Below, piece after piece: positions 7,748-62,686 of a DNA stretch of 64,000 nucleotides. The notes under the pieces were generated by a model that was not told where the DNA came from, did not search any database, and saw only the letters and a program-made list of their open reading frames with translations. The first letter of the stretch is position 1. Each line of letters starts with the position of its first letter. This DNA comes from a virus (Duplodnaviria > Heunggongvirae > Uroviricota > Caudoviricetes): positions 21,023 through 85,022 of IMG/VR virus record IMGVR_UViG_2974636330_000001; one strand, given 5' to 3'. The position numbers and the translations under genes were made by a program.

Positions 7748-8006
7748 GATGGCGGAAGCCCGGGAAGTTCCGCCAGTGAGCGGATCGAACCGGATGGAAG
7801 ATCAGGTGGTGTTCGGTGACGCCTACGTGCTGGGCATCAACTTGGAGAATACCCTGTGGCTGGCCGAAGGCGACAAGCGGAGGATCAAGGAGTTCGTCTC
7901 GGAGGCCATGCAGGCAATCCGGGAGGCTCGGAATCCTTGCCGGTGGTGGGAGTTCGCCTGCAAGAAGCGCCTGAGAACACCGCTGGTCGAAAAAACTGGC
8001 GAATAA
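7614..8006 (+). CDS. o-spanin (Rz1-like outer-membrane lipoprotein), partly embedded in the i-spanin gene
   Basis: Signal peptide with lipobox-like LLFLCSC, then a Pro/charged-rich body. Starts out of frame within the i-spanin, the classic overlapped arrangement. Confidence 0.45.
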   Translation: MSRFAKTLRWLLPLTLLFLCSCASLQSRPANSESDLIVIEKAVNKMAEAREVPPVSGSNRMEDQVVFGDAYVLGINLENTLWLAEGDKRRIKEFVSEAMQAIREARNPCRWWEFACKKRLRTPLVEKTGE

Positions 8007-8100
8007 GGCGAAAATAAAGGCGAATAAAGGTAGAAGCGCTTGCGCTGTCGGTGTGCTTTGCTATTCTTTACTCATCGGCAGCACAAACCCAATGGAGTGA
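7996..8100 (+). promoter_or_regulatory. early-type promoter cassette: phased AAAGGCGAAAA repeats, TTGCGC(8040-45)-N16-TATTCT(8062-67), leader CAATGGAGTGA(8090-8100)
   Basis: AAGGCGAAAAT / AAAGGCGAATA / AAGGTAGAAGC direct repeats with 11-bp period, then sigma70-like hexamers, then the conserved leader 5 nt before the ATG. Confidence 0.5.
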
Positions 8101-8105
8101 AGCAC

Positions 8106-8240
8106 ATGAACCGCAAAGCCATGATCGAAGCCATCAACACCATGCGCGCCGCCGCTGGCCACGCTCCCATTGATGGCAAGGGCGAACGTCTGGTGATCAT
8201 CAAGATGTGGCACCACCAGCACACGCAGGGCATCTTCTGA
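8106..8240 (+). CDS. small hypothetical protein (44 aa)
   Basis: ATG placed 5 nt after the conserved CAATGGAGTGA leader and downstream of a TTGCGC-N16-TATTCT promoter. Confidence 0.4.
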   Translation: MNRKAMIEAINTMRAAAGHAPIDGKGERLVIIKMWHHQHTQGIF

Positions 8241-8404
8241 TGGCTACCAAGGCGCGCACCCCGAAGATCACGGCCCGCAAGTACGGCGGCAATGACGAAT
8301 ACAGCTGGGCGGTGTTCATTGATGGCCGCCCGTTCGTGACCGGCCTCAGCAAGCGTGAAGTCCCGCACTACAAGTCGGTGGCAGCAAAGAAGGCGGTGGC
8401 CTGA
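8240..8404 (+). CDS. small hypothetical protein (54 aa)
   Basis: TGATG overlap with the upstream gene; open frame to 8404. Confidence 0.35.
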   Translation: MATKARTPKITARKYGGNDEYSWAVFIDGRPFVTGLSKREVPHYKSVAAKKAVA

Positions 8405-8832
8405 TGAGCATCTTCGCCTACATTCAGCAGCAGGAGGTGGACTGGCACAAGGCCCTGAAGGCCAACGGCCACGTCCCGGTGATGGACGAAGACTCCCCGG
8501 ACAAGTTGGACACGTGGGTTCATCAGGGTGGCGAGTATTGCAACGGTCCGGGCTGTTCGGCCTGCGGCGAGACGTGGTGCTACCACTGCAAAGGCACTGA
8601 TGCCATCAAGCCTTGTACGAAGGCCGCGCTGGAAGGTGAGTTCGTGAACGTCGGCAAGCAGAAGGCGTTGACCTACGAAGACCCGGAGGCAGACAACTCC
8701 CCGCGTCGGATCACCAACCGCCTGCGCCGAAAGGTCAACCGATTCACGTATCGTCAGCAGGGTGGGTGCGGGAACGTGAAGCGGGCGACAGGATCATGGC
8801 GGGTGCATAGTGGTCGCCAGTTCGTGAAATAA
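8404..8832 (+). CDS. Cys-rich (zinc-binding?) hypothetical protein
   Basis: 142 aa with CNGPGCSACGETWCYHCKG and a second CG cluster. Confidence 0.5.
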   Translation: MSIFAYIQQQEVDWHKALKANGHVPVMDEDSPDKLDTWVHQGGEYCNGPGCSACGETWCYHCKGTDAIKPCTKAALEGEFVNVGKQKALTYEDPEADNSPRRITNRLRRKVNRFTYRQQGGCGNVKRATGSWRVHSGRQFVK

Positions 8833-8838
8833 TAGAAA

Positions 8839-8935
8839 ATAAAGGCGAAAACTGGCAGAAAACCCTTCCCTTTGGAGGGGTTTTTGCTATTATTAAGTCG
8901 TACCCAGCAACAACCACACAATGGAGTGAGCCACA
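8839..8935 (+). promoter_or_regulatory. terminator hairpin (CCCTTCCCTTTGGAGGGG+T5) fused to -10 TATTAT and CAATGGAGTGA leader
   Basis: GGCGAAAA upstream; stem-loop 8861-8885; TGCTATTAT; leader 8919-8930. Confidence 0.5.
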
Positions 8936-9145
8936 ATGAACACCAAGACCGCCTACGCCAACATCAACGAGTTCCTCTCGGAGTCCCCGGAAGGCTCGCT
9001 GTTCGAAACCACGGCTCTCGGTCACAGTGTGGCTCGCCTGTATCACGCGCCGGGCATGGTTGCCGCCTTCGCGGGTGGCAAGACCCCGGAAGAAGCCCTG
9101 AAGAACCTCAGCATTGAGCTGGCCCGCATCGAGTCGGAGGCTTAA
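8936..9145 (+). CDS. hypothetical protein
   Basis: Conserved leader CAATGGAGTGAGCCACAATG, preceded by a terminator hairpin. Confidence 0.5.
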   Translation: MNTKTAYANINEFLSESPEGSLFETTALGHSVARLYHAPGMVAAFAGGKTPEEALKNLSIELARIESEA

Positions 9146-9147
9146 TC

Positions 9148-9450
9148 ATGAGCCACGCAGTCGCCGAAGACACCCTGACCAAGCTCGGAGGCCGGATGTT
9201 CGTACTGGACTCGGACTGCTCCCAGCCGATGATGGACGGAGATACCCTGACGCTGGGCTTCGGCCCTCGCGTCATCAAGGTCAAGGCAGTCGGTGACCAG
9301 TACGAAATCACCGACGCCACTTTGAACACCCGCAGCCAGTGGATGAAGACCGGCAAGCTGTTGAACGTACGGCAGGTGGTGACCACCACGGAGGAGCAGC
9401 TTCGGGAAAAGGTCTGGGAAATCGTCGGCAAGAGGGGCGGAAAGAAGTAA
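9148..9450 (+). CDS. hypothetical protein
   Basis: 100-aa ORF, ATG 3 nt after the upstream stop. Confidence 0.5.
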   Translation: MSHAVAEDTLTKLGGRMFVLDSDCSQPMMDGDTLTLGFGPRVIKVKAVGDQYEITDATLNTRSQWMKTGKLLNVRQVVTTTEEQLREKVWEIVGKRGGKK

Positions 9451-9509
9451 TTTCCTTCCCAGTGCTGCTGTAATCTGGTAGCATATCTGTTCACAATTGG
9501 AGTGATTTT

Positions 9510-10667
9510 GTGCTCGAATATGCTTTGAAGGCCAACCTGCCACTGGTGGGTGTGTCCACGGATGATATCCTCAACTACAAGGCCGTCCTTGCGGCGTTCT
9601 CCGGGCGCAACGTAGTAGAGCCGCCCGCCAACATGAAGATGATGGGCAAGGGTGACGCGATCTACGTCACGGACAATTCGGAGTACATCGATCCCAAGTG
9701 GTATGAGTATCTGGCCCACGCTGGCCGGTGCATGGTCATCGTCAACCCGAAGGTAACGTCCCCTCTGCTGTTCGATGGCGGCCTGCTGCCTACCCCCACC
9801 CCGATGGTCGCCAAGCTCCTGAGCGATATGCTGGGCAAGGGAGTCGATGAAGAGCTGTTCCTGCCTCCGTTGAAGGGGCTGAGTCTGCGGGCGGTGGGTG
9901 AGATTGTGGCCCTGACGAAGGCCCGCGTCGGCACGGTGACCGCTCCCGAGATTCGACGGACGCGGGGTATGACCAGCCCGGCCATCCAAGGCTTCACCCC
10001 GATTGATACGTCGTACGACTTCTACGACCTCCCGAAGGGGCTGGCAGAGTGGCTGTCGCTCAATTCTAAATACTTCACCAGCCCCACCCATCCCAAATTG
10101 GTCCCACGCGGACTGCTGTTGGAGGGTCCGCCCGGCACTGGTAAGACGATGGCGGCCAAGGCCATCAGCAATGAGTTCGCTTGCCCGTTGTACCGGCTCG
10201 ACATTGCCACGGTGCTGGACAGGTACATCGGCCAGTCGGAGGCACGAGTCGCCAAGATTCTCGCCATGTGCGAACGGGAAAGCCCGTGCGTTCTGCTGAT
10301 CGATGAAGTGGAGAAGCTGTTCGGGGACGAAGACAGCAGCGGCGTAACGTCGCGCATCCTGAGCCAGTTGCTCTGGTGGTTGTCCGAACATCAGTCGATG
10401 GTGTTCACGGTGATGACCACGAACGACGCATCGAAGTTGCCTCCGGAACTGCACCGGTCTGGCCGTATCGACAAGACGCTGCACCTTCCCAAGATGAAGG
10501 CGCAGGAGGCCAAAGTGTTCTCGCTGAAGGTTCTCGGCTCTTTGATGAAGAACGTGGATTTGAAGATGCAGAACCACATGTTCAAGGCGTTGACGGCCAA
10601 GGAATACTCGGCAGCCGAAGTCACGGACCTTGTGTACCAAGAAGTGAAGCGTCAGAAGTGGCTTTAA
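9510..10667 (+). CDS. AAA+ ATPase (classic clade) with a ~190-aa unknown N-terminal domain; paralog of 62687..63898
   Basis: Walker A GPPGTGKT, Walker B LLIDEVEK, sensor TTND, arginine finger ELHRSGRID. GTG start after the AATTGGAGTGA leader. The N-terminal region aligns with the second AAA+ protein. Confidence 0.75.
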   Translation: MLEYALKANLPLVGVSTDDILNYKAVLAAFSGRNVVEPPANMKMMGKGDAIYVTDNSEYIDPKWYEYLAHAGRCMVIVNPKVTSPLLFDGGLLPTPTPMVAKLLSDMLGKGVDEELFLPPLKGLSLRAVGEIVALTKARVGTVTAPEIRRTRGMTSPAIQGFTPIDTSYDFYDLPKGLAEWLSLNSKYFTSPTHPKLVPRGLLLEGPPGTGKTMAAKAISNEFACPLYRLDIATVLDRYIGQSEARVAKILAMCERESPCVLLIDEVEKLFGDEDSSGVTSRILSQLLWWLSEHQSMVFTVMTTNDASKLPPELHRSGRIDKTLHLPKMKAQEAKVFSLKVLGSLMKNVDLKMQNHMFKALTAKEYSAAEVTDLVYQEVKRQKWL

Positions 10668-10682
10668 CAAAATAAAGGCCAA

Positions 10683-10771
10683 TTGGCGAAAATATTGGCG
10701 AAAACCTCTTGCGCCTTCGACGACAATCGGTACGATTACTACATCAACAACACAGCTGCAATGGAGTGAAA
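10683..10771 (+). promoter_or_regulatory. promoter cassette: TTGGCGAAAA x2, TTGCGC(10709-14)-N16-TACGAT, leader CAATGGAGTGA
   Basis: Same architecture as 7996-8100. Confidence 0.5.
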
Positions 10772-11392
10772 ATGGAAGGTTTGAATATCACCCCGATGGA
10801 AGTCGTTGAGGCCGAAGGGTCGAAGCGCAAGTACATCGCCATCGCAAAGACGGACGGCGGCAAATTGTTCGCCGCTCTGGACTTCGAACTGAACATCATC
10901 ATCGACAAGCAGTCGAAGAAGAACCTCCCGGCCATCGGCGTGGGTGTTCGCTTCGCTGCTCTCGGCGGTGGTTCGTGGAACATGGAACACCGGGATCAGG
11001 GCAGTAAGTTGCCGGACGGGATGGAGAACCTCGAAAAGTTCTTCTTCGCGGTGAGCCTGCCCGGTCCGGTGGTCTACACGAACACCTTGATGGCCGAGAA
11101 GAAGATCGTGGCCCGCCTGTTCAAGTGGCTGCAATTGATTGCAGAGGTCAACAAGGCCGAACTGCTGGTGACCGAGGCGAACCTCCAGATGTGGTTCGAA
11201 GAGAAGTCCACCGGCCTGATCGACTATGACCCTGCCGACTGCCAGTTCCCCAACGAAGCGTGGGAAACCAAGAAGTCGGTGGCCGCTCCGGTGACCCTGA
11301 TGCCGGTCGTTGATTCCTCGGAAGACGAAGAGGAAGAAGAGGACGACGGCGAAGAGCAGGAAGAAGACGACGAGGAAGACGACAATGAGTAA
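10772..11392 (+). CDS. hypothetical protein with extreme acidic C-terminal tail
   Basis: Leader CAATGGAGTGAAAATG. C-terminus SSEDEEEEEDDGEEQEEDDEEDDNE. An acidic tail is reminiscent of SSB/gp2.5-type proteins, but no OB-fold is recognisable. Confidence 0.5.
   Translation: MEGLNITPMEVVEAEGSKRKYIAIAKTDGGKLFAALDFELNIIIDKQSKKNLPAIGVGVRFAALGGGSWNMEHRDQGSKLPDGMENLEKFFFAVSLPGPVVYTNTLMAEKKIVARLFKWLQLIAEVNKAELLVTEANLQMWFEEKSTGLIDYDPADCQFPNEAWETKKSVAAPVTLMPVVDSSEDEEEEEDDGEEQEEDDEEDDNE
11130..11143 (+). repeat. TGCAATTGATTGCA (in CDS, LQLIA)
   Basis: exact match. Confidence 0.9.
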
Positions 11393-13251: not shown

Positions 13252-13270
13252 GCTGCACCTGCTGTAGGAC

Positions 13271-13364
13271 GAAGCCCCGGGATGTTTCCTAGCGAAAACC
13301 CGGGGCTTTTTCTTGACTTAGATGCGAAGAAAAGTTACACTAAAGCATCAATGGAGTGCAGCAG
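13271..13364 (+). promoter_or_regulatory. intrinsic terminator (AAGCCCCGGG...CCCGGGGCTTTTT) followed by TTGACT(13313-18)-N17-TACACT(13336-41) promoter and leader
   Basis: Near-consensus sigma70 hexamers with 17-nt spacer. Confidence 0.55.
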
Positions 13365-14756
13365 ATGGCTGAGTTTTTCTGTGACAACCCGAAGTGTCAG
13401 TTCCACTTCACGATCCCGGCGACGATGACGCCAGCGGACGAACTGGAGTCCCTGAAGGGCTTTTCGCCGCTTGGGGAGAATCCGTACTTCCCGAAAGCAA
13501 AACAGATCACCAAGTATCCCAGCAGCGGTAACTATGACCTTGAGGCGAAGTACCAAGCCACCATCGAAGGCGCAACCATCGGCATAGGCATCCACGCGCT
13601 GCTCAACGGCGTTTCCGCCGTGGAAAGCCACCATAGCGCCATCGAAGTGGACGGCATGACCATCACGGGTAGGTTCTGTTCGTGCTGTATGCAGATGTTC
13701 GACTTCATGGGCGCAGCCCAAGTTGACCCGAATCCCATGGTTACGGTGAACACCATGGAAATGCCGGGAGGTCTGGAACCCCATCAGGCGTTTATGGCGG
13801 GCCTGATCGACGGGATGACACAGCCGAACGGACTTCCTCTGACTCTGGCAGACGTGTCGTCCAGCATGACGTATAAGGGTGTGAAGCTGACGCCGGAGAA
13901 CACGAAGAAGGCGATGGACCTGCTGTGTGCCGAGCTTCACAAAGGCCAGTATGTCGAGCCGAACATCGTGGAGTACAAGTCGTTGGATGACATTCCCGTG
14001 GAAGGCTTCGACGGCGAGCAGCTGTCTGATCCGTTCAAGTCGATGGCCAAACCCATCATCAAGACTGTGGATGAAATCTTCGTAGAGAAGATCAAGAAGC
14101 AGTGGCCTGATGCCGTGATGGTGAACGGCAAATGGTGGGACTATCCGGAGGCAAAGGGCGGCTCAAAAATCAAGAGCGGCATCCTGAAGGCCCTGATGAC
14201 GGATGCGACCCATGAGTTCGCCATGCAGGACTTCGACGGGAAGCACGGCAACAGCTACGAAGATTGGGCCAAGCAGAATGGGCCGGAAAGTCTTGAGTCC
14301 CTACAGGGGATGGCCAAGAAGGTAGGGATGAAGGATATTGATTTCCTGATCCACACCGGAATAACGGGCATAGTTAGTATGGAAGAAGACCTTGGAGCCT
14401 TGAAAGAGCAGGCGAATCAGAGCCTGATTTCCAAGATCGCATCCAAGTTGAAGCCCAAGACCGGCCCTGTCGGATTCGATCCGAAGGACTCCATCAGCAC
14501 CCACCCGGAGTTCAGTGCAGGGGGCGTAGAGGCGCTCCATGAGTACGACTTTATCTCGATGAACCATCACTTCACCCTGCCCAGCGGGACGGTGCTGAAG
14601 GTGCCTCACGAAGGACTAGACGCGGTGATGGGCAAGCTGACGAGCCACTTCCCGAACGTGACGTTCAATGGGAAGAAGCTGTCGGTGGAGGACAAAGCGT
14701 GGCTGAAAGAGGCCATCTTCACCCACAAGGCCAACACGAAACCGGGGCAGCACTGA
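13365..14756 (+). CDS. hypothetical protein (464 aa) with Cys/His N-terminal motif EFFCDNPKCQFH
   Basis: ATG 5 nt after CAATGGAGTGCAGCAG, behind a TTGACT-N17-TACACT promoter. The N-terminal motif is repeated in the next gene. Confidence 0.55.
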   Translation: MAEFFCDNPKCQFHFTIPATMTPADELESLKGFSPLGENPYFPKAKQITKYPSSGNYDLEAKYQATIEGATIGIGIHALLNGVSAVESHHSAIEVDGMTITGRFCSCCMQMFDFMGAAQVDPNPMVTVNTMEMPGGLEPHQAFMAGLIDGMTQPNGLPLTLADVSSSMTYKGVKLTPENTKKAMDLLCAELHKGQYVEPNIVEYKSLDDIPVEGFDGEQLSDPFKSMAKPIIKTVDEIFVEKIKKQWPDAVMVNGKWWDYPEAKGGSKIKSGILKALMTDATHEFAMQDFDGKHGNSYEDWAKQNGPESLESLQGMAKKVGMKDIDFLIHTGITGIVSMEEDLGALKEQANQSLISKIASKLKPKTGPVGFDPKDSISTHPEFSAGGVEALHEYDFISMNHHFTLPSGTVLKVPHEGLDAVMGKLTSHFPNVTFNGKKLSVEDKAWLKEAIFTHKANTKPGQH

Positions 14757-15961: not shown

Positions 15962-15964
15962 GCC

Positions 15965-26660: not shown

Positions 26661-26674
26661 TGCAATTAATTGCA
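26661..26674 (+). repeat. TGCAATTAATTGCA (perfect-palindrome variant, intergenic)
   Basis: centre TA instead of CA/TG. Confidence 0.8.
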
Positions 26675-26738
26675 GTAACCCCTTTACAAACGTGCTGGGT
26701 GCGTTACTCTACGCATCCACCACAACGGAGTGATTCAA

Positions 26739-27542
26739 ATGAGCGAGAACGAAGAGCAGGGCGGTTCGCAGGTGCAGGAAGCTGCCCCGCAGGAGCAGGT
26801 TGTCACCGCTGGCAAGACCAAGGTGAAGGACGATCTGTTCGTCTCCATCGCGCAGGAAATCGAGGGCCTGAGCAAGACCAAGGCGCTGAACCTCGCGGAC
26901 AAGCTGAACGAGAACATCGAAGTCGATTACTTCCGTCTCGGCGGCGTGCTGAAGGTCATCTACGAGAACACGTGGTTCGAAGGTCACGAATCCTTCGGCG
27001 CGTTCGTGGCTGACAAGTTCGGCTTTGCCGAGCGCAAGGCCAAGTACCTGATGGAAATCTACGACCATCTGGTCACGAAGCAGATTCCCTTCGAGAAGGT
27101 CAGCGGCCTCGGCTGGACCAAGCTGAAGGATCTGGCCCGTCACCTGACGCTGGAAAACGTGGACGAGTGGGTGGCCAAGGCCCTGCCGCTGACCGTGAGC
27201 GAGTTGCAGGCCCTGCTGAAGGGCAGCAACGGCGACGCCGAAGGCACCACCAAGGTGACCTCCGACGAACAGACCCTGAAGTTCAAGTTCAAGAACGATC
27301 AGGTCGAAACCGTCACGTCCGCGCTGAACAAGGCCAAGGCCGAAGTCAACACGACCTACGACACCGTGGCGTTGGAAGCGATCTGCACCGGCTACCTCGG
27401 CGGCTCGGTCGGCATCGCGGCCACCGGTGCCTCGCTGGAAGAGCAGATGAAGTCTGCCGGTGCCAAGGGCGTGCTGGAGCTGTTCGACCAGCTGTTCCCG
27501 TCCGTGGAAATCACCATTGATTCCATGGGCGAAGAAGGTTAA
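26739..27542 (+). CDS. hypothetical protein
   Basis: Leader CAACGGAGTGATTCAAATG; 267 aa; intrinsic terminator downstream. Confidence 0.5.
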   Translation: MSENEEQGGSQVQEAAPQEQVVTAGKTKVKDDLFVSIAQEIEGLSKTKALNLADKLNENIEVDYFRLGGVLKVIYENTWFEGHESFGAFVADKFGFAERKAKYLMEIYDHLVTKQIPFEKVSGLGWTKLKDLARHLTLENVDEWVAKALPLTVSELQALLKGSNGDAEGTTKVTSDEQTLKFKFKNDQVETVTSALNKAKAEVNTTYDTVALEAICTGYLGGSVGIAATGASLEEQMKSAGAKGVLELFDQLFPSVEITIDSMGEEG

Positions 27543-27564: not shown

Positions 27565-27727
27565 CCTCGACGTGTGCGCCCGGGAGGGGTCTGAGAAATC
27601 AGGCCCCTCTTTTTATTGGGCGACAGTCGGAAAATAAAGGTAAAAACTGGCGAAAACCTCTTGCGCAGCCGGTGGGCATTCGTATACTAGGTCCATCAAA
27701 TCAATCAGCAACCAATGGAGTGACAGA
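27565..27727 (+). promoter_or_regulatory. terminator (GAGGGGTCTGAGAAATCAGGCCCCTCTTTTTAT), GGCGAAAA repeats, TTGCGC(27661-66)-N16-TATACT(27683-88), leader CCAATGGAGTGA
   Basis: Same cassette as 7996-8100. Confidence 0.5.
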
Positions 27728-27885
27728 TGAAGAAGCCCGCCATCAAGTTCAAAGCCGCAGCGACCACCACTGTCGGCAGCACGATCCGCTACTTCCACAA
27801 GGGCTACAAGTTCTGGGAAGTCAGCAAAATCGAAGATGGCGTGGCCACCGCTGTTGCGGTTTCTTCTCCCTCCGGCTGCTGCTAA
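27727..27885 (+). CDS. small hypothetical protein (52 aa)
   Basis: ATG 5 nt after CCAATGGAGTGACAG, behind TTGCGC-N16-TATACT. Below the ORF-track cutoff. Confidence 0.35.
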   Translation: MKKPAIKFKAAATTTVGSTIRYFHKGYKFWEVSKIEDGVATAVAVSSPSGCC

Positions 27886-28003: not shown

Positions 28004-28085
28004 GCCGCAAACCACCTAATTTTCTTGACTGACTACCTGCCAAGTAGTACAGTCTTTGAGACCCACAACCCCGGAGAGTTACCCC

Positions 28086-30104: not shown

Positions 30105-30246
30105 TTGTCCAATGGTGGACGCTGGCATTCCCTTCGAGCGGGACAGGGCCAGCAAGGCAACCTCAGTAGCGGGCCAGTCGTGAGACTCGCGGGAAACCAC
30201 TACATGCCTTGTCGCACGACACCGGGACGACGCCAAATAATGGAGT

Positions 30247-30316
30247 AATAAGGCGAAAAGCCTTGCGCAATCGGAGACATTTGCTATGCTCTCCGCTCAC
30301 CACAACGGGGCAATTC
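30247..30316 (+). promoter_or_regulatory. promoter: AAGGCGAAAAG, TTGCGC(30264-69)-N15-TATGCT(30285-90)
   Basis: Conserved cassette downstream of the tRNA/ncRNA block. Confidence 0.45.
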
Positions 30317-31087
30317 ATGGATAAGAAAGTACAGGCGGCGCTGTCGGCAAAGATCGACGTGCGCGGTGAAGACTACACGGTCGAGCAGGCCCTCCTGAGC
30401 GCACACGGACACTTCGCCCCCGAAGACCTGATCAAGGCGATTCTGGACAGCCAGAAGCCGGAGGGCTTCATTGTTACGGGCCTGAGCGATTCCGAGCTGG
30501 TTTCGAAGTTGCAGGAAGTCGGCCACGCCGAAAGCGTCCGTGACATTCTCGTCAGCCGGATCGGCGTCCCCGCCCACACGGTGTTGATCGATGAAATGAC
30601 CTACGCCAACTGGAAGACGCGGTACAACGTTGAAACGTTGGCTGTGAACGGTGAAGCGTACTGGTACTGGCAAGGGGACAAGGAAGACTACCCGGAGAGT
30701 CTGACCTGCCCCGTCATCATGTCGGCAGAGCAGCTGCGCGAAATGCTGGGCAACGCCAACCGTTACAAGACATGGCGCGACTCGATGATCGCCCATCTGT
30801 TGGAAGATCAGCTGGTGATCCAGCAGGCTCTGCCGGAAGAAGTTGGCGAAAGTCGCCCACCAACCGCACAGGAGTGGGACAAGGCCATCGACGCCCTCCG
30901 AGCAGTGAAAGAGTCCGGCAAGAAGTGCGATCACTGCGACAACGGCAAGGTGATCAACGAGAACTCCCGAATGGCAGAAAGCTGCCGCCATTGTCAGCCG
31001 AAGTGCATCTGGCCCGACTGCGGCCACGACACGAACCGGGTGGGCTATGGCGCTGAAGGTTGCAACGGCGTGGGCTGCGTCAAGTGA
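30317..31087 (+). CDS. hypothetical protein with C-terminal Cys cluster
   Basis: ATG after the leader CACAACGGGGCAATTCATG, behind TTGCGC-N15-TATGCT. 256 aa; C-terminus CDHCDNGK...CRHCQPKCIWPDCGH...CNGVGC. Confidence 0.5.
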   Translation: MDKKVQAALSAKIDVRGEDYTVEQALLSAHGHFAPEDLIKAILDSQKPEGFIVTGLSDSELVSKLQEVGHAESVRDILVSRIGVPAHTVLIDEMTYANWKTRYNVETLAVNGEAYWYWQGDKEDYPESLTCPVIMSAEQLREMLGNANRYKTWRDSMIAHLLEDQLVIQQALPEEVGESRPPTAQEWDKAIDALRAVKESGKKCDHCDNGKVINENSRMAESCRHCQPKCIWPDCGHDTNRVGYGAEGCNGVGCVK

Positions 31088-32467: not shown

Positions 32468-32562
32468 TGCGAAAACAGGCGAAATAAAAGACGAAAGCCC
32501 TTCCAATTGGAGGGGCTTTTGCTATTATAAATCCATCAAGTCGCAAACCAATGGAGTGAATC
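32468..32562 (+). promoter_or_regulatory. GCGAAAA repeats, terminator hairpin (GCCCTTCCAATTGGAGGGGCTTTT) fused to -10 TATTAT, leader CCAATGGAGTGA
   Basis: Same layout as 8839-8935. Confidence 0.5.
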
Positions 32563-32790
32563 ATGAAGACCATCGCCCTGCCCAGCCCGAAAGACTTCCC
32601 GAACGCCAAGGAGTTCTCCATGGAACTGGCCCGGGCACGCTGGATCAACAGTGAGACTGGTGAAGCTCGCGCCGTGGCTTATGCGGAATATATGGAAGCC
32701 CGCAAGGTGTTCGAAGGAACCCAGAACATCGCTGGCAAGTTCGAAGGCATGAACGGTGAGTTCGCCGTCTTCTCGGGTGTCAGCCTGTGA
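32563..32790 (+). CDS. small hypothetical protein
   Basis: Leader CCAATGGAGTGAATCATG after a terminator plus TATTAT -10. Confidence 0.5.
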   Translation: MKTIALPSPKDFPNAKEFSMELARARWINSETGEARAVAYAEYMEARKVFEGTQNIAGKFEGMNGEFAVFSGVSL

Positions 32791-36802: not shown

Positions 36803-36808
36803 AGGCAG

Positions 36809-42877: not shown

Positions 42878-43134
42878 TGAAAGCCCTGTTCAAGAATCCG
42901 GTGTTCGTGGTGGCTTTGATCGCCTCGGTGGTGTATCTGGTGTTCGGCCTGTCGATCTTCTTCGGGCCGCACAGTGGGTTGCTCAGTTGGATTCTGGGCG
43001 GGGTGATCGCGCTGGTGATCGCTGCGTTGTGGGTTGCCGTGTACAAGGGAGCGACGACCTACTCGACTGCGAAAGACGCCGTGGATCAGTCATGGGATGA
43101 CCTGCGGGATCGCATCGATAAGGGCGAAAAATAG
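42874..43134 (+). CDS. small membrane protein
   Basis: Two TM segments. Confidence 0.4.
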   Translation: MMKALFKNPVFVVALIASVVYLVFGLSIFFGPHSGLLSWILGGVIALVIAALWVAVYKGATTYSTAKDAVDQSWDDLRDRIDKGEK

Positions 43135-43209
43135 CGGGCCTTGGGATAAGAACCCTGCTAAAATAAGGGTCGGGAGATTCGTCTCTCGGCCCTTTCTAAT
43201 GGAGTAAGT

Positions 43210-43848
43210 ATGAAGAGTCTCGTGATCGTGCCGCACATGGACGATGAAGTCCTGAGTTGCGGGGGCCTGATCCAGAACCGGACTGAAGTGCGCGTGCTGG
43301 TGGTGTACGGCAGGCACTACCCCGAGCTGTCCGGACAAGAACTGTGGGATAAGCAGGCGGAGCAGATACAGCACTTCAATGCGGCGTGCGGAATGCTGAA
43401 AGTCGAATCGGTAGTGTTCCTGAACATGCCGGAGGGGGAGCCGCATCAGGTGGGCTACTACCGGGTGTTGGAGCAGCTGGAGTCCCGACTGAAGTCCTTC
43501 CAGCCTGAAGAAGTCGTGTTCCCCGGGGAGTTCGACCAGAACCAAGACCACGTGATGCTGAACCACGTTGGCCGCATCCTGATGCGTCCCGGAAACCTCG
43601 GAAACGTGAAGCGCGTGTTGAAGTCGATTGCCCACGATAGTATCCTGACGCAGCCGACCTATTTCGTGCCGATGAACAGCAATCAGATGAAGAACAAGCT
43701 GAATGCCATGCGTTGCTACGAAGACGAAGTGCGCGAAAACCCCCATCCCCGCAGTCTCGACAACATCGAGGCGCTGGCCCGTGTCCACGGTAGCAAGTGC
43801 GGCCACGAGTTCGCCGAAGGCTACATCACCCACATGATCAAGGAATAA
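43210..43848 (+). CDS. LmbE/PIG-L family N-acetyl-sugar deacetylase
   Basis: Leader CTAATGGAGTAAGTATG. N-terminal VIVPHMDDEVLSCGG (the PIG-L HxDDE motif) and a second FDQNQDHVMLNH motif. Confidence 0.6.
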   Translation: MKSLVIVPHMDDEVLSCGGLIQNRTEVRVLVVYGRHYPELSGQELWDKQAEQIQHFNAACGMLKVESVVFLNMPEGEPHQVGYYRVLEQLESRLKSFQPEEVVFPGEFDQNQDHVMLNHVGRILMRPGNLGNVKRVLKSIAHDSILTQPTYFVPMNSNQMKNKLNAMRCYEDEVRENPHPRSLDNIEALARVHGSKCGHEFAEGYITHMIKE

Positions 43849-53205: not shown

Positions 53206-53612
53206 GCGGCACCGTCAGCACGACCGGCAAGGAACTGGACCCGAACGGCGTCCATCATCCGAAGCATTACAACGTCCATCCGTCCGGGGTGGAGACCATC
53301 GAAGTCATCCGCCACCTTCCCTACGACCTCGGCGCAGCGTTCAAGTACGTCGTCCGCTGGCGGGAGAAGGACGGTAAGAAGGACTTGGAAAAAGCCCTGT
53401 GGTATCTGGCCGATCTGAAGAGCCACCCGTTCATCACGTACTCCAGTTCGTACGCAGGCAGCGTGATCCTCAACGTACGGAAGTACCGCGACACGGCTAC
53501 GGACGAAGCGGAGGCCCTGTTCTACGACGCAGTGCTGGGCTACATGTCCGGAAGTGGTGCGGCGGTGGAACGCATGATCGCACAGGTGAAAAACCTGCTC
53601 GAAAAAGCGTAA
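53202..53612 (+). CDS. DUF3310-like phage protein
   Basis: PKHYNVHPSGVETIEVI...AFKYVVRW is reminiscent of the DUF3310 conserved blocks, a family often found next to nucleotide-metabolism genes in phages. Confidence 0.4.
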   Translation: MSGTVSTTGKELDPNGVHHPKHYNVHPSGVETIEVIRHLPYDLGAAFKYVVRWREKDGKKDLEKALWYLADLKSHPFITYSSSYAGSVILNVRKYRDTATDEAEALFYDAVLGYMSGSGAAVERMIAQVKNLLEKA

Positions 53613-53616
53613 AAAT

Positions 53617-53682
53617 AGGCGAAATAAAGGTGAAAGCCCTTCCATATGGTGGGGCTTTTGCTATTCTAAGTGCATGGAAACC
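53617..53682 (+). promoter_or_regulatory. GGCGAAATAAAGGTGAAA repeats, terminator hairpin (GCCCTTCCATATGGTGGGGCTTTT) fused to -10 TATTCT
   Basis: Same cassette type. Confidence 0.45.
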
Positions 53683-53916
53683 ATGACTATCGCCAACATG
53701 AAGAACTGGACCGTCCTGTACTACGGGAACAAGGTCGGTGAAATCAAGGCATACGACGCCATGTACGCTCAGGCTAAGGCAGAAGTGATGTTCGCCAAGC
53801 TGGGTGACGGCCCGATCACCGTGGAGCAGATCGTGGAGGAAGAGCCGGTTGCAATCAATTGCAGTGGCCTGATCCTCGGCAACGATCAGTTCGACATGTC
53901 TTTGTACGGAGTCTGA
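53683..53916 (+). CDS. small hypothetical protein
   Basis: ATG after a terminator plus TATTCT -10. Confidence 0.45.
   Translation: MTIANMKNWTVLYYGNKVGEIKAYDAMYAQAKAEVMFAKLGDGPITVEQIVEEEPVAINCSGLILGNDQFDMSLYGV
53850..53863 (+). repeat. TGCAATCAATTGCA (in CDS, other frame: AINC)
   Basis: exact match. Confidence 0.9.
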
Positions 53917-53917: not shown

Positions 53918-54310
53918 ATGCCCCAGCACTGGCATTTGGTGGACGTGGAGTACCACGATATCTTCCGCAACCCGGCCCTGTCCGAGACGTACAAGATCAA
54001 GGCTGGCTCGCTTGTACAGTGCCTGTTGATGGCCCAACTCAACGAAACCGAGAAGGGTTTCTACCAGTTGGTGTGGTTCCGGGCGGTTGAAGACTTCACC
54101 CAGTATGGCATTTGGAAGGGTGAGCTGTTGACCAAGCCGGTTCGACCGCTGGTGATGTTGGAAGAGGGCATCAGGGTGAAGCTCCGGTACGATTACGTCA
54201 CCGACTTCAAGGTGCCGGGTGAAGAGCAGACCTACTGGCAGAAGAAGGGAATGAAGGATGCCTTCAAGTTTGCCCTGCCTCCGTGCCCGGAACATCAAAA
54301 ATTGACGTAA
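53918..54310 (+). CDS. hypothetical protein
   Basis: 130-aa ORF. Confidence 0.45.
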   Translation: MPQHWHLVDVEYHDIFRNPALSETYKIKAGSLVQCLLMAQLNETEKGFYQLVWFRAVEDFTQYGIWKGELLTKPVRPLVMLEEGIRVKLRYDYVTDFKVPGEEQTYWQKKGMKDAFKFALPPCPEHQKLT

Positions 54311-54315
54311 AAACC

Positions 54316-54369
54316 TTGCATTTGGTGCGGGAACCCGTATGATAACCGTATCAAATCTGCATCCAATGG
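54316..54369 (+). promoter_or_regulatory. promoter TTGCAT(54316-21)-N16-TATGAT(54338-43) plus leader CCAATGGAGTGA
   Basis: Spacer TTGGTGCGGGAACCCG is nearly identical to the spacer at 62639-54. Confidence 0.5.
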
Positions 54370-54477
54370 AGTGAAGTCATGGGTTTCTGGTATATCGTCA
54401 TCGGTTTCGTACTCGGACTGGTCACGGGCGGCGTCATGACGCTGATGGCCAAGGCCCATGTAGGCGACAGCGTATGA
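54370..54477 (+). CDS. small membrane peptide (35 aa)
   Basis: ATG 5 nt after CCAATGGAGTGAAGTC, behind TTGCAT-N16-TATGAT. Single TM segment WYIVIGFVLGLVTGGVMTLM. Confidence 0.35.
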   Translation, partial: SEVMGFWYIVIGFVLGLVTGGVMTLMAKAHVGDSV

Positions 54478-55406: not shown

Positions 55407-55549
55407 AGGAAATTGCCGAGTTCGAAGCTCAGAAGCGGGAGTTGGAAGAACTCCTTCCCATGTCGATTGGCACGCAGGCGGAAGCCTCCCTGCGCCGCAA
55501 GATCAAATGGGTAGACGAGCAGATCGAAGCGGAAAAACAGGCTGCATAA
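55397..55549 (+). CDS. small coiled-coil protein (50 aa)
   Basis: In-frame ATG with RBS GGAGCGAGGG. Confidence 0.3.
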   Translation: MGLKEIAEFEAQKRELEELLPMSIGTQAEASLRRKIKWVDEQIEAEKQAA

Positions 55550-55631
55550 GGCGAATATCAGGAAATCCCTACACGCAGAAGGGAGAACCTGCCGTATACT
55601 TCACCCCAACACACCCCAAACGGAGCAAGTC

Positions 55632-55883
55632 GTGGCCAAAAGGAATCGTCAGCAGATTTTCAAAGTCCAGATTCCCATCGGTGGGGACATGGGCGCTGCG
55701 CTGATCTACAACCGGGACCGGAGTATCTGTTTCCAGCTGCCGCTGACTGATGAAGCGCGGAAGGAATTGAACCGGTACTTCAAGGAAGACGAGTACAAGA
55801 TTTATGTCGAGGGCCGACTGCAAGGCCCTGCAATGAATGCCGGGTTCGAGATTCTGAAAAGGATGCCCGAACAGGCTTGGTAA
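55632..55883 (+). CDS. hypothetical protein
   Basis: GTG after AAACGGAGCAAG; 83 aa. Confidence 0.4.
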   Translation: MAKRNRQQIFKVQIPIGGDMGAALIYNRDRSICFQLPLTDEARKELNRYFKEDEYKIYVEGRLQGPAMNAGFEILKRMPEQAW

Positions 55884-58144: not shown

Positions 58145-58320
58145 TGGCCCGCCGCACTCACTATGATCTTGTGGAAGAAATCCAAGAGCAGCTGTACCGG
58201 ATGCACGACCGGGAAGTCGAGCGGTTTGCGGCAGTAGGTGAGCTGGTGGAGCGTGGAATCGATCTGTCAGACGATGACGAAGAGTTTTTGGAAAATTTGG
58301 CGGATAGGCTCGGTATTTAG
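58141..58320 (+). CDS. small acidic protein
   Basis: 59 aa with ATGA overlap. Confidence 0.35.
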   Translation: MMARRTHYDLVEEIQEQLYRMHDREVERFAAVGELVERGIDLSDDDEEFLENLADRLGI

Positions 58321-58392
58321 GCGAAAAGCGCTTGCACTATGGCAGGGCTTTGCTATCGTATAAATATTCGGTATCCAATGGAGTGACTCAAA
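58319..58392 (+). promoter_or_regulatory. promoter GGCGAAAAGCG, TTGCAC(58332-37)-N16-TATCGT(58354-59), leader CCAATGGAGTGA
   Basis: Conserved cassette. Confidence 0.5.
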
Positions 58393-58512
58393 ATGAGCGG
58401 AACTGTTCTTCTGGTTGGTCTTCTGGTTGAAGTCCTGCTGGTAGTCCTCCATGGCTACCGCAGCAGTCAGCGCACCCTGCGCCGTGACCTCACCAAGAAG
58501 GCATACCGCTAA
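58393..58512 (+). CDS. small membrane peptide (39 aa)
   Basis: ATG after CCAATGGAGTGACTCAAA, behind TTGCAC-N16-TATCGT. Confidence 0.35.
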   Translation: MSGTVLLVGLLVEVLLVVLHGYRSSQRTLRRDLTKKAYR

Positions 58513-60614: not shown

Positions 60615-60952
60615 ACGAAGAGCCGATCCCCGCCAGCGCTCGCCGCCGATACGCCGCAGGCCGACGCATCAAAGTACCCAAGAAGGTCAAGACGACCCGG
60701 GACGTGATGCGTCGGCACATGCGCGAAGAAGGCAAGGACTACTCGGAGCTGGCCAAGGCATGGAACATGAAGTCCGCCGAGTACGTGAAGCATCGGATGT
60801 GGAGGAAGACTCCGTTGTCTCCGCAGTACATCGACGCCTTCATCGAACTGTTGAAGCTGGACGGTCAAGACGCGCTGGAGTTGCGATTCCTCGCAGCCCT
60901 TGAAGCGGGCTGGCAGCTGGAAGGTGTAGCCTCAGCGGTTTTCTGCGAATAA
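60611..60952 (+). CDS. basic hypothetical protein
   Basis: 113-aa ORF. Confidence 0.45.
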   Translation: MNEEPIPASARRRYAAGRRIKVPKKVKTTRDVMRRHMREEGKDYSELAKAWNMKSAEYVKHRMWRKTPLSPQYIDAFIELLKLDGQDALELRFLAALEAGWQLEGVASAVFCE

Positions 60953-61021
60953 TAGGCGAAAAATGCTTGCCTTTTGGTGGGTATTAGGTACGATAATCGT
61001 ATCGGAAATCCACTGGAGTAC
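60952..61021 (+). promoter_or_regulatory. promoter GGCGAAAAATG, TTGCCT(60967-72)-N16-TACGAT(60989-94), leader CCACTGGAGTA
   Basis: Conserved cassette upstream of the ligase gene. Confidence 0.5.
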
Positions 61022-61921
61022 ATGATGGCCCTGCGTAAACCCCACAAGGCGTGTGATGCTGAGGTCCAGCACCTGCGGTTCCCCCTGATCGGTATGCCCA
61101 AGATCGACGGCGTGCGCGGTCTGGTGCAGGACAGCAAGTTGTACTCCCGGACGTTGAAGCTGCACCCGAACCTGTACAGTCAGGAGCGCTTCGGCAAGGA
61201 AGAGTACAACGGCCTCGACGGTGAACTGGCCCTCGGCGACCCCACCGGGGAGCGTCAGTGCAACCGGTCCAGCAGTGCCATCGGGCGCATCAAAGAAGAG
61301 CCGGACTTCACCCTGTGGGCCTTCGACCTGCTGACTCCGGAGACGGAAGGCATGGGCTACAAGGCCCGCCTCGTACTGCTGGCGGAGCTGGTGGAAGAGC
61401 TGGCAGTAGACCATATCCAGATCGTGCCCCACGTCCTGATCACCAGTCAGGAAGAGCTGGAGGCATGGGAGGAAGCGTGGTTGTCCGAAGGCTTCGAGGG
61501 CATCATCCTCCGCGACCCGGAGGGCAAGCACAAGCAGGGACGATCCACGGCGCGTGAGAACGGGTTCCTGCGCATCAAGCGGTTCACCGACAGCGAAGGT
61601 GTCGTCCTTGAATTGAAGGAAGGCCAGTCGAACGGGAACGAAGCTCAGATCAATGAGCTTGGGCACACCAAGCGCAGCACCCACAAGGAGAACATGAAGC
61701 CGAACGGCCTCGTGGGAACCATCGTGATGAAGGACGTGTACACCGGGCAGGTGCTGAACGTCAGCCCGGGCAACATGACCGAAGACGAACGCAAGTTCTA
61801 TTTCGAAAACCAAGACCAGATCGTCGGCAAGATCGGCAAGTACAAGGCTTTCCAGTACGGGAAGAAAGACAAGCCGCGCTTCGCAGGATGGCTGGGATTC
61901 CGCAACCCGGAGGAAATGTGA
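61022..61921 (+). CDS. ATP-dependent DNA ligase
   Basis: Leader CCACTGGAGTACATG behind TTGCCT-N16-TACGAT. Adenylation motif I MPKIDGVRG (KxDG), motif III FTLWAFD, motif IV FEGIILR, motif V FLRIKRF. Confidence 0.8.
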   Translation: MMALRKPHKACDAEVQHLRFPLIGMPKIDGVRGLVQDSKLYSRTLKLHPNLYSQERFGKEEYNGLDGELALGDPTGERQCNRSSSAIGRIKEEPDFTLWAFDLLTPETEGMGYKARLVLLAELVEELAVDHIQIVPHVLITSQEELEAWEEAWLSEGFEGIILRDPEGKHKQGRSTARENGFLRIKRFTDSEGVVLELKEGQSNGNEAQINELGHTKRSTHKENMKPNGLVGTIVMKDVYTGQVLNVSPGNMTEDERKFYFENQDQIVGKIGKYKAFQYGKKDKPRFAGWLGFRNPEEM

Positions 61922-62334
61922 AGACAACCCTGTTGAAGGCAGCCGAAGCTGCCACGTTGGTGATCATCGAGAACGTCGATCAGACGGGCTGCGAAGTATT
62001 CCAGAGTGGAATGCTGCGCTTCGATGGAGCCGATGAAAATTGTTGGCTGCTGGACGGCAGTCAGGAACTGGAAATCGACGCCGAGGGCAAGGCTGTGGCG
62101 CAGGATGACGAAGGCTCCTTGAACATGGAGTTCCGTGTTACCCACCCGTTGACCGAAGACGACCTGAAGAGCGGCAACCGTGATCCGGCAGGCAAGCGTC
62201 TGACCGAAGGCTACCGCGCCCTGCGCGGGGTGTTGGATAAGGGGCAGTTCGGCCAGCACAACTTTACGTTGGACAAGGTGCAGATCGAGGGTATCCTCGG
62301 CCTGCTGTCCGGCGAGTTCGAAGGGGTCTACTGA
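61918..62334 (+). CDS. hypothetical protein
   Basis: GTG overlapping the ligase stop; 138 aa. Confidence 0.4.
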   Translation: MKTTLLKAAEAATLVIIENVDQTGCEVFQSGMLRFDGADENCWLLDGSQELEIDAEGKAVAQDDEGSLNMEFRVTHPLTEDDLKSGNRDPAGKRLTEGYRALRGVLDKGQFGQHNFTLDKVQIEGILGLLSGEFEGVY

Positions 62335-62627
62335 TGCCAGTATCGTTCAAACAGCGCGAGCCGGTGCAGCAGGACAGCGTGCAATCAATTGCACCGGAAC
62401 AGATGAGCCGCCAGCAGCTGATCGCCGCCATGATGGAAGATCGTCTGGACCCGGCCTGCTCCATCCGACCGGTGATGCAGAACCTGTTGCTCAATGGGCA
62501 CAAGGGGTTCAACAACATGTCGGATGCTGAACTGCTGGACGAAGTGCTGAATATGGGCACGTTCCCGGAAGAAGAGCGAATCCTTCCGAAGTCGCAAGCC
62601 TCGATCCTGCCGGTAAATAAGGCGTAA
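62334..62627 (+). CDS. hypothetical protein
   Basis: 97-aa ORF with ATGA-type coupling. Confidence 0.45.
   Translation: MPVSFKQREPVQQDSVQSIAPEQMSRQQLIAAMMEDRLDPACSIRPVMQNLLLNGHKGFNNMSDAELLDEVLNMGTFPEEERILPKSQASILPVNKA
62380..62393 (+). repeat. TGCAATCAATTGCA (in CDS, VQSIA)
   Basis: exact match. Confidence 0.9.
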
Positions 62628-62632
62628 ACCTC

Positions 62633-62686
62633 TTGATTTTGGTGCGGAAACCCGTACCATAAGCGTTCAAACCAATGGAGTGTTAG
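62633..62686 (+). promoter_or_regulatory. promoter TTGATT(62633-38)-N16-TACCAT(62655-60), leader CCAATGGAGTG
   Basis: Spacer TTGGTGCGGAAACCCG matches the spacer at 54322-37. Upstream of the second AAA+ gene. Confidence 0.5.

Follow-up and report, generated by a model that had tools for sequence, protein, structure and literature searches.

What is the unit of about 110 bp that recurs before the non-structural genes of a Stenotrophomonas siphovirus, and what do its parts do? The question is raised by a 64,000-nucleotide stretch of DNA (the window), positions 21023-85022 of its record, whose genome is that of Stenotrophomonas phage vB_SmaS_DLP_5 (DLP5; NC_042082.1/MG189906.1; 96,542 bp; 100% identity). 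Coordinates are those of the window unless the record is named, a window coordinate being the record coordinate - 22 - 21,000. All annotated genes of the window lie on the plus strand save gp149, an open reading frame (ORF) of 41 amino acids, and gp090, one of 37 amino acids. DLP5 is temperate, its prophage is kept as a plasmid ('phagemid') and its DNA is heavily modified (PMC5834331); the comparison genomes from GenBank, Summit (about 90% identical to DLP5) and DLP3 (about 84%), belong like DLP5 to the genus Delepquintavirus. Promoters, terminators and regulatory repeats go unmentioned both in the DLP5 announcement and in the DLP3 paper, and the Summit record, which annotates ribosome-binding sites and seven terminators, marks no promoters. 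The recurrent unit, hereafter the cassette, joins direct GGCGAAA repeats, a promoter and a leader motif before the start codon, and is a real and previously undescribed expression unit that heads about 20 non-structural DLP5 operons.

The shared layout is directly visible in the 130 nt before those DLP5 genes that have an upstream gap of at least 35 nt. A position weight matrix built from 16 cassettes and spanning -50 to +14 relative to the -10 element detects 19 DLP5, 20 Summit and 18 DLP3 sites, every one of them on the plus (coding) strand and none on the minus strand. The DLP5 matches score 12-69 bits (25-62 bits by leave-one-out), whereas shuffles peak at 6.8 bits for DLP5 and no shuffled genome exceeds 8.4 bits. 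All matrix sites lie at 29-96 kb of the record, outside the structural and lysis module (0-28 kb); 13 of the 19 DLP5 matches fall inside the window. Most counts given below refer to the 22 cassettes found genome-wide, those of the matrix and consensus to the set of 16. At the level of single motifs, AATGGAGTGA with up to one mismatch has 18 matches, 17 of them on the plus strand, where 4.7 are expected and none of 100 shuffles yields as many, while GGCGAAAA has 10 matches against 2.3 expected, all nine plus-strand copies lying inside cassettes.

The strand-specific matrix scan of the full genome, with its empty shuffles, thus bears out the recurrent family that the original prediction had drawn from the window. 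Twelve of the 14 sites listed there carry a matrix match, the starts at 9510 and 13365 being preceded instead by promoters that are degenerate or have a 17-nt spacer, and the spacers at 54322 and 62639 are indeed nearly identical. What had gone unmentioned is an extended -10 (TGn), a conserved Y-A-T at the predicted start of transcription and five cassettes beyond the window. Gene duplication was rejected as the source of the similarity, since the 22 first downstream genes include a single paralogous pair, the two AAA+ ATPases with 33% amino acid identity; as proposed, regulatory units have been reused rather than genes duplicated. When the best cassette was compared with all GenBank phages by blastn, only the three Delepquintavirus genomes matched. 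An exact-pattern search of viral contigs with GGCGAAAANNNCTTGCGC returned 100 single, seemingly random matches and no matrix-scored cassettes except unrelated AT-rich promoters, and an Rfam scan reported tRNAs and no other family.

With the -10 hexamer placed at -12 to -7, the cassette has a regular anatomy. GGCGAAA units (up to one mismatch) start -11 to -13, -21 to -24, -33/-34, -42 to -44 and -54/-55 from the first T of the -35 element in the three genomes, with a mean step of 10.6 bp between offsets, and the A residues recur with a period of about 10.5 bp (power 1.12, random genome windows giving 0.31 +/- 0.06 and shuffled windows 0.36 +/- 0.07; none of 2000 sets is as high). The spacing of 11-12 bp first claimed for the repeats has to be widened to 9-12 bp, but the helical phasing and the lock to the -35 hold, with offsets quantised at the 10.6-bp step. 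In being locked to the -35, the repeats behave as expected for UP-like DNA or activator-type sites. The A-tracts are found at about -72/-70, -62/-60, -52/-49 and -41/-39, the last reading AAA in 14-16 of the 16 cassettes and A at -52 to -49 occurring in 8-11. Between them, GG at -56/-55 and -46/-45 is kept in 10-14 cassettes. On the plus strand, 15 of the 24 exact GGCGAAA copies lie inside cassettes. The copy number per cassette ranges from 0 to 4, and as many as five GGCGAAA/A-tract units can be made out upstream of the -35.

Downstream of the repeats, C-TTGC at -35 to -31 is invariant, the -35 box reading CTTGC(G/C)C, with TT in 16/16 and G in 12/16 cassettes. The spacer, G-rich at -26 to -20, measures 16 nt in 16 of the 22 cassettes and 17 nt in three. 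It leads into an extended -10, T-T-T-G-(C/G) at -17 to -13 (G-14 in 13/16, T-15 in 10/16), and a -10 of the form T-A-(T/C)-n-(A/C)-T, followed by A-A, in which A-11 and T-7 are present in 16/16. The A of the conserved Y-A-T lies 7 nt past the -10, where transcription would be expected to start. Across 49 pairwise comparisons of orthologous cassettes, no substitution is seen at C-TTGC, T-12, A-11, T-7 or A-39, against a rate of about 0.4 per site in the flank lying 60-75 nt 5' of the -10. At record 75360, 82011 and 29910, DLP5 and DLP3 differ by a replacement of spacer or repeat DNA that leaves the motifs intact. The positions that do not vary among orthologues are the ones that matter most in sigma70-type promoters. 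Thus the -35 and -10 assignment made at the outset fits a sigma70-type promoter, although the -10 may also read TACGAT or TACCAT. Of the features by which such promoters are recognised, the TTG start, a spacer of 16-18 nt, TAnnnT and TGn are all found, and a close match to TTGACA/TATAAT (at least 9 of 12 positions) is not.

The upstream DNA resembles UP elements and phased A-tract curved DNA, as in rrnB P1 and the early promoters of T4 and SPO1, in that the A-tracts near -41, -51, -61 and -72 fall on one helical face just upstream of the -35, and A/T-rich subsites near -42 and -52 are phased with it. In contrast to the E. coli UP consensus, which is continuous A/T, the cassette A-tracts are short (3-4 nt) and the A/T runs from -59 to -38 are broken by conserved GG(C)G blocks.

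Several local variants deserve mention here. The promoters at 13313-13341 and 28025-28053 are alike, TTTTC-TTGACT-N17-TACA(C/G)T, with a canonical -35 and a 17-nt spacer, and both lack the GGCGAAA array. Where the -10 is TACGAT or TATTCT, it forms short DNA palindromes with the start region, such as TACGAT-A-ATCGTA and CTATACGTATAG (60989-61010; record 89160-89180 and 91044-91065), which may arise as a by-product of conservation in the start region (cgTATCGG) or else form a small operator that overlaps the -10 and +1. The annotated ATG at 53674, 6 nt after the -10 TATTCT, coincides with the predicted +1 in DLP5, Summit and DLP3, and because of this coincidence in all three genomes the mRNA is probably leaderless. 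The start had been placed at 53683; that second ATG is not conserved in DLP3, the conserved start is 53674, and the cassette lacks the leader motif.

The leader motif CAATGGAGTGA ends 2-7 nt before the ATG, rather than the 4-7 nt first given, and places GGAG 5-10 nt from it. With up to one mismatch, it precedes 13 of 22 cassette-led genes and 2 of 126 others (Fisher p = 3e-11), and all 17 strong cassettes lead to an ATG, the start codon of 80% of genes genome-wide. The motif is absent before record 29 kb, and structural genes use AAGGAG(G). The leader is therefore specific to the class, as had been argued; the starts at 30317 and 53683 have no motif and that at 61022 a degenerate one, CCACTGGAGTAC. 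A further start proposed at 54370 lies inside a leader, the start codon being 54379. When orthologous leaders are anchored on GGAGT, no substitutions (0/43) occur at C-A-A-T and at the G after GGAGT, positions that the anchor does not force, and the flanks stand at 0.1-0.33. The predicted 5' untranslated regions are 18-53 nt long, consist of 38% A, 36% C and 13% G before the motif, and are slightly less structured than shuffles (fold z = +0.5).

Complementarity to the 3' end of 16S rRNA, 5-10 nt from the start codon, is found with a general-knowledge 16S tail and agrees with a Shine-Dalgarno (SD) site. The predicted duplex with the anti-SD amounts to -8.1 kcal/mol when UGA, which pairs across one bulged C, is included and to -5.6 kcal/mol when it is left out. 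Thus, of the six extra bases that had been ascribed to an extended SD, three (UGA) can lengthen the 16S pairing, whereas CAAU is not so explained.

Strong hairpins occur in six of the 22 cassettes (free energy, dG, -20.6 to -27.7 kcal/mol; z -4.5 to -7.3), and the other 16 fold no differently from shuffles. The terminator that had been described as often present is a minority feature, found at only 4 of the 14 in-window sites. In all six cases the stem spans the -35 and spacer, with base pairing between the proximal GCGAAAG repeat and the CTTTTGC of the extended -10, so that a single stretch of DNA would serve on one side as terminator A-tract and upstream element and on the other as U-tract and extended -10. 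A scanning tool independently calls terminators at 8858-8885 and 32498-32514, and in the Summit record four orthologous hairpins carry a terminator annotation that stops 3 nt short of the -10. Between orthologues the hairpins show no compensatory changes, and that at record 74684 has uncompensated mismatches in DLP5 and DLP3. The strongest terminator-like hairpin of the window lies elsewhere, at 57173-57216 within annotated gp100 (GGCTCTGGTGGGGGATTCGACTCCCACCGGGGCT then TTTGTTTTGC), and its loop region resembles a tRNA T-arm (GGATTCGACTCC).

More distant relatives separate the leader from the promoter. Three metagenomic contigs located through the ATPase, L007 (50% amino acid identity), L145 (51%) and L166 (39%), have a G+C content of 47-58% and share the leader in the form AA(C/T)GGAGTGA, in which the position before GGAG varies (T/C/A). 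L007 carries nine (C)AA(T/C)GGAGTG(A/G) sites in 12.4 kb, all on the plus strand, each 3-6 nt before an ATG, and before promoter-proximal and internal genes alike. Their promoters differ from that of DLP5 (TTGACAAACT, with a block TTGACAAAC(T)-N-TAnnnT), and neither GGCGAAA repeats nor matrix matches are found. Since the relatives keep the leader behind different promoters, the leader is older than the promoter design: it is an old, lineage-wide translation-initiation signal, and the CTTGC/GGCGAAA promoter is specific to the genus. The single cassette of the original prediction is a shared architecture, then, but not an indivisible one, the leader being separable in relatives with a 39-50% identical ATPase. 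An ATPase-alignment search of bacterial and archaeal genomes for prophage relatives gave only generic archaeal AAA+ ATPases. In L007 (1068-11720) and L166 (9300-16000), the conserved promoter block takes the form TTGACAAAC(T)(C/G)(G)-N-TA(C/T)nnT, often with a palindrome before it and AA(C/T)GGAGTGA after it, and amounts to a second promoter family, for which a model could be built across the uncultured relatives.

Taken together, the statistics and the patterns of selection make it reasonably probable that the cassettes are some 19-22 promoters of host sigma70 type, with upstream DNA resembling UP elements and with a specialised ribosome-binding site, heading the non-structural operons of the genus. 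According to this explanation, the A-tracts would act as UP-element subsites or curved DNA and recruit the C-terminal domains of the RNA polymerase alpha subunits on one helix face, TGn would compensate for a weak -35, above all in the hairpin variants, and transcription would start at the conserved A. GGAG would be the SD, with the following UGA extending the pairing with the 16S tail across the bulged C. In six cassettes the -35 and spacer DNA would also encode an intrinsic terminator for the upstream operon, the flanking A-tract and U-tract doubling as proximal upstream repeat and T-rich extended -10. The cassettes would thereby give strong, insulated and probably early expression, and we propose that they occasionally act as recombination points. 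That the cassette-led genes form an early class we infer from promoters that look host-type and that head non-structural operons with many small ORFs. In Xanthomonas, which is close to the host, differential RNA sequencing recovered only a weak -10, no -35 and no SD consensus, with 14% leaderless mRNAs (PMC3300014), and the phage signals therefore stand far above the host background.

A number of observations weigh against this explanation. The family went undetected in a generic TTGACA/TATAAT scan (at least 9/12), which gave no excess over shuffles and picked up only 13313 and 28025 among the cassette-region sites; since this E. coli-consensus scan was blind to the family, the sites were sought with a matrix specific to it. 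Neither sigma70 nor an UP element requires the invariant C before TTG or the GG(C)G conserved between A-tracts. As regards translation, the mean anti-SD duplex of cassette-led genes (-7.5 kcal/mol) is no stronger than that of the rest (-7.7 kcal/mol); within CAAU, which cannot pair with 16S rRNA, the U preceding GGAG is mismatched and the C falls past the 3' end of the rRNA. These energies, moreover, were computed with a 16S 3' tail from general knowledge and not from a Stenotrophomonas genome. Anti-SD pairing was rejected as the whole explanation of the leader, its energy being no better than for other genes and CAAU being left unaccounted for. The heavy modification of DLP5 DNA (PMC5834331) could alter what the polymerase sees, and as DLP5 persists as a plasmid prophage, some 20 strong promoters would need silencing, which favours a protein-binding role for some conserved element.

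A protein-binding role is the core of a tentative alternative, in which the GGCGAAA repeats form an array of sites bound cooperatively on one helix face by a phage- or host-encoded protein that switches the whole class, for example a repressor that keeps it silent while the phage is a plasmid prophage, or an activator bound at class-I-type positions. The conservation of GG at both repeat positions exceeds what A-tract function needs, the repeats are direct, in a single orientation and phase-locked, most exact plus-strand copies sit in cassettes, and the motif is regenerated in orthologues whose surrounding DNA has changed. The temperate, phagemid lifestyle (PMC5834331) would suit such a switch, and relatives carry a different conserved site, the TGCAATCAATTGCA palindrome, at the same upstream position. 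However, the distal units are degenerate and variable in number, the A's are more conserved than the G/C bases, and a location upstream of the -35, clear of the core promoter, is atypical for a repressor. A Pfam scan of the annotated regulators and neighbouring proteins found only a MerR-type helix-turn-helix in gp059, a domain that usually binds a dyad, and no match in gp081, the annotated repressor, and thus yields no candidate binder of direct repeats. The dispersed operators of temperate phages, namely the P1 C1 operators and L5 stoperators, are likewise many short oriented copies near promoters or in intergenic sites of a temperate, plasmid-type prophage, yet those sites overlap a promoter or block elongation and are single and well conserved, whereas the DLP5 units are tandem, degenerate and upstream of the -35.

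On the RNA side, it is possible, if rather doubtful, that the extended leader CAAUGGAGUGA, beyond serving as a strong SD site, is an RNA element recognised by a post-transcriptional factor specific to the class, be it a translational repressor, an activator or an endoribonuclease. T4 offers parallels in RegA, which binds early initiation regions, and in RegB, which cuts GGAG in early mRNAs. The strict conservation of CAAU despite its mismatched U and a C past the 16S end, the absence of any gain in predicted anti-SD energy, the different context used by structural genes and the persistence of the motif across relatives with 39-50% identical proteins and 47-58% G+C would all fit an RNA target. 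Against this, relatives also have the motif in front of internal genes, as would be expected of a general ribosome-binding site, the base before GGAG varies among them, and no RegA- or RegB-like protein is annotated, in a search that was not exhaustive. A similar role has been suspected for the Start-Associated Sequences (SAS) of Cluster K mycobacteriophages (PMC3203893), which the leader resembles in being an asymmetric motif with an SD core close to the start (3-7 bp for SAS), confined to the non-structural region, in one orientation and with a strong preference for ATG, with conserved positions that cannot pair with 16S rRNA and conservation across subgroups before unrelated genes. The sequences differ (CAATGGAGTGA versus GGGATAGGAGCCC of SAS), as do the hosts, Proteobacteria rather than actinobacteria; ESAS-type inverted repeats are missing, and the partner element of the cassette leader is the promoter. 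The leader thus belongs to the SAS family neither by sequence nor by host, and is a further example of a like element. A re-initiation role for AATGGAGTGA, as a two-codon mini-ORF (AUG-GAG-UGA) that loads ribosomes for the nearby start, is extremely improbable: although 16 of 18 DLP5 instances keep a stop in frame with the ATG (13 TGA, 3 TAA), relatives often have AACGGAGTGA, with ACG in place of the start codon, the TGC, TGT and TGG variants lose the stop, and no SD site precedes the mini-ORF.

We regard it as unlikely that the cassettes are chiefly recombination modules of the type of PeSL (promoter-early stem-loop, composite promoter-terminator cassettes), their similarity upheld by exchange and gene conversion and driving gain and loss of the small genes they flank. 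There is one clear recombination event between two DLP5 cassettes. DLP3 lacks cassette 1 and gp036-038, and its single cassette is a chimera whose 5' repeats match DLP5 cassette 1 and which is identical to cassette 2 from the hairpin onward, with the crossover in the GGCGAATAAAG repeats. Other breakpoints lie at cassette edges (record 48755, 53589, 75328 and 95084/95335), and several copies have spacer sequences in common that promoter function does not need. Yet the orthologue footprints reveal selection on exactly the promoter and ribosome-binding positions, and breakpoints are not significantly enriched at cassettes over other gene boundaries (6/22 versus 14/93, p = 0.15; 5/22 versus 13/93, p = 0.24), so that a PeSL-like shuffling role is possible and not established. 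PeSL of T4-like phages comprise an AT-rich region, a stem-loop, a sigma70-like promoter, an SD and a start codon (PMC4122927, PMC2839356), and the cassettes match them as repeated intergenic units of composite architecture among small non-structural genes, including stems of the type A(n)G(n)-loop-C(n)T(n) in phage nt-1 that resemble GAAAGCCC...GGGCTTT in DLP5. However, PeSL occur in hyperplastic regions of T4-like myoviruses, to which the Stenotrophomonas siphovirus DLP5 is unrelated, the DLP5 stem-loop overlaps the -35 and spacer instead of lying upstream of the promoter and is limited to six copies, the upstream region is a phase-locked GGCGAAA repeat rather than generic AT-rich DNA, and the association with indels is not statistically established. 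The cassettes are thus not members of the PeSL family, by sequence or by host, but a further example of a like element.

Lastly, a phage-directed polymerase specificity, through a phage sigma factor or a modified host enzyme, might read the promoters, and early expression of the class would then not follow. The invariant C-TTGC and the conserved G-rich spacer are features that the sigma70 consensus lacks, the terminase gene belongs to an operon downstream of a weak cassette, and the promoters of the host lineage itself are poorly conserved (PMC3300014). We nevertheless judge this very unlikely, as TAnnnT with invariant A-11 and T-7, TGn, a 16-nt spacer and TTG make up the canonical sigma70 signature, the relatives have a near-perfect TTGACA -35, and neither a phage sigma factor nor a phage RNA polymerase is annotated. 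Under the preferred reading, host-type promoters joined to a specialised ribosome-binding site, the DLP5 cassette is an ordinary kind of phage regulatory cassette.

Table. Cassettes, promoters and palindromes (plus strand for the cassettes and promoters; window coordinates unless stated)
Feature	Position	Elements	Start (gene)	Matrix score; folding
Cassette 1	7996..8108	four GGCGAA(A/T) repeats; TTGCGC-16-TATTCT (-10 at 8062); leader CAATGGAGTGA	ATG 8106 (gp036)	52.7 bits
Cassette 2, hairpin type	8826..8938	repeats; hairpin 8858-8885 across -35/spacer; TGC-TATTAT (-10 at 8888); leader	ATG 8936 (gp039)	61.5 bits; dG -21.2, z -5.1
Degenerate cassette	9430..9512	TTCCCA-17-TAGCAT (-10 at 9479); CAATTGGAGTGA	GTG 9510 (AAA+ ATPase gp041)	under matrix threshold
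Cassette	10669..10774	2-3 repeats; TTGCGC-16-TACGAT (-10 at 10731); GCAATGGAGTGA	ATG 10772 (gp042)	51.0 bits
Variant	13270..13367	separate terminator hairpin (ccccggg...cccgggg + T-run); TTGACT-17-TACACT (13313-13341); CAATGGAGTGC	ATG 13365 (gp047)	
Relative-type promoter	26661..26741	palindrome TGCAATTAATTGCA; TTTACA-17-TACTCT (-10 at 26705); AACGGAGTGA	ATG 26739 (gp066)	13.6 bits
Cassette	27582..27729	upstream terminator 27582-27611; repeats; TTGCGC-16-TATACT (-10 at 27683); CCAATGGAGTGA	ATG 27727 (gp067)	56.2 bits
Cassette promoter without leader motif	30223..30319	GGCGAAAA; TTGCGC-16-TGC-TATGCT (-10 at 30285)	ATG 30317	52.0 bits
Cassette, hairpin type	32461..32565	repeats; hairpin 32498-32514 (extended stem from about 32490); TGC-TATTAT (-10 at 32523); CCAATGGAGTGA	ATG 32563	63.9 bits; dG -23.1, z -7.2
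Cassette, hairpin type, different stem (cccgcgc...gcggg)	36790..36870	TGC-TATATT (-10 at 36838); TAATGGAGTAA	ATG 36868	25.4 bits; dG -22.1, z -4.8
Degenerate cassette	43110..43212	one GGGCGAAAAA; TGC-TAAAAT (-10 at 43159); structured leader; TAATGGAGTAA	ATG 43210 (PIG-L deacetylase)	
Cassette, hairpin type	53600..53685	repeats; hairpin; TGC-TATTCT (-10 at 53662)	ATG 53674 on predicted +1	67.6 bits; dG -20.6
Cassette	54276..54381	TTGCAT-16-TATGAT (-10 at 54338); CCAATGGAGTGA	ATG 54379 (gp107)	47.3 bits
Degenerate cassette	55540..55634	GGCGAATAT; -10 TATACT at 55595; ACGGAGCAAG	GTG 55632	
Cassette	58292..58395	GGCGAAAA; TTGCAC-16-TGC-TATCGT (-10 at 58354); CCAATGGAGTGA	ATG 58393 (39-aa ORF)	51.8 bits
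Cassette	60927..61027	repeats; TTGCCT-16-TACGAT (-10 at 60989); degenerate leader CCACTGGAGTAC	ATG 61022/61025 (DNA ligase)	56.9 bits
Cassette	62593..62689	GGCGTAAA; TTGATT-16-TACCAT (-10 at 62655); CCAATGGAGTGT	ATG 62687 (AAA+ ATPase gp086)	40.8 bits
Further cassettes past the window	record 85583, 89194, 91099, 95076, 95447	from the upstream-sequence listing		
Hairpin cassettes	record 29910, 53545, 57860, 74684, 85547, 95398	first four = window 8888, 32523, 36838, 53662		
Near-palindrome sites	99, 1032, 5139, 7112, 11130, 15876, 18604, 21177, 25667, 26661, 29626, 34012, 36431, 37107, 38667, 40232, 41670, 44527, 47649, 49653, 52251, 53850, 57462, 59540, 62380	14 bp each		

Some further features of the window came to light alongside the cassettes. 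The cassette ending at 58395 stands directly 5' of a hydrophobic ORF of 39 amino acids (58393-58512; MSGTVLLVGLLVEVLLVVL...) that is unannotated in the DLP5 RefSeq record, where a gap of 191 nt is left; cassette and ORF start are kept in Summit and DLP3, and the DLP3 record annotates a gene there. ARAGORN predicts a fifth tRNA (Tyr-GTA) at 29523-29608, which is annotated in Summit and DLP3 and not in DLP5 and goes unreported by Rfam at gathering score; its 3' end is overlapped by the minus-strand gp149 (record 50616-50741), annotated just downstream in DLP5. The tRNA cluster includes an amber-suppressor-type tRNA with anticodon CTA. A near-palindrome, TGCAAT(CA/TG)ATTGCA, has 44 strand matches in the window against 0.45 expected and recurs every 2-3 kb genome-wide in both orientations (35 sites in DLP5, 34 in Summit and 34 in DLP3). 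Within DLP5, 26 of the 35 sites lie in coding sequence and five adjoin the SD of a gene (structural, lysis or other); distant relatives (38-60% G+C) also carry the motif, 5-20 nt ahead of TTGACA -35 boxes. Its possible roles are those of a dispersed operator or of a parS-like site for the phage ParB-like proteins, or it may have to do with DNA modification.

The analysis provides a first transcription-unit map for Delepquintavirus, with about 20 predicted promoters, six terminator-promoter junctions, one probable leaderless mRNA and one unannotated gene, in phages that are therapy candidates against S. maltophilia. It also offers compact, strong and insulated expression parts for the Xanthomonadaceae, whose promoters and ribosome-binding sites are poorly defined (PMC3300014). 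Its practical value lies in this annotation and these parts. One bold reading, which we consider improbable, is that the two conserved elements left unexplained by sigma70 and 16S rRNA, GG(C)G in the repeats and CAAU in the leader, are operators for dedicated phage factors, a DNA-binding protein polymerising along one face of the repeats and an RNA-binding factor or nuclease acting at CAAUGGAGUGA, which together would constitute a two-layer global switch. If true, the protein would turn about 20 promoters on or off together, possibly silencing them in the plasmid-prophage state, the RNA factor would control the same genes post-transcriptionally, and the switch would span a phage family well beyond the genus. 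The leader motif itself is kept across a broad and mostly uncultured phage family, and represents a Gram-negative counterpart to the unexplained SAS of mycobacteriophages.

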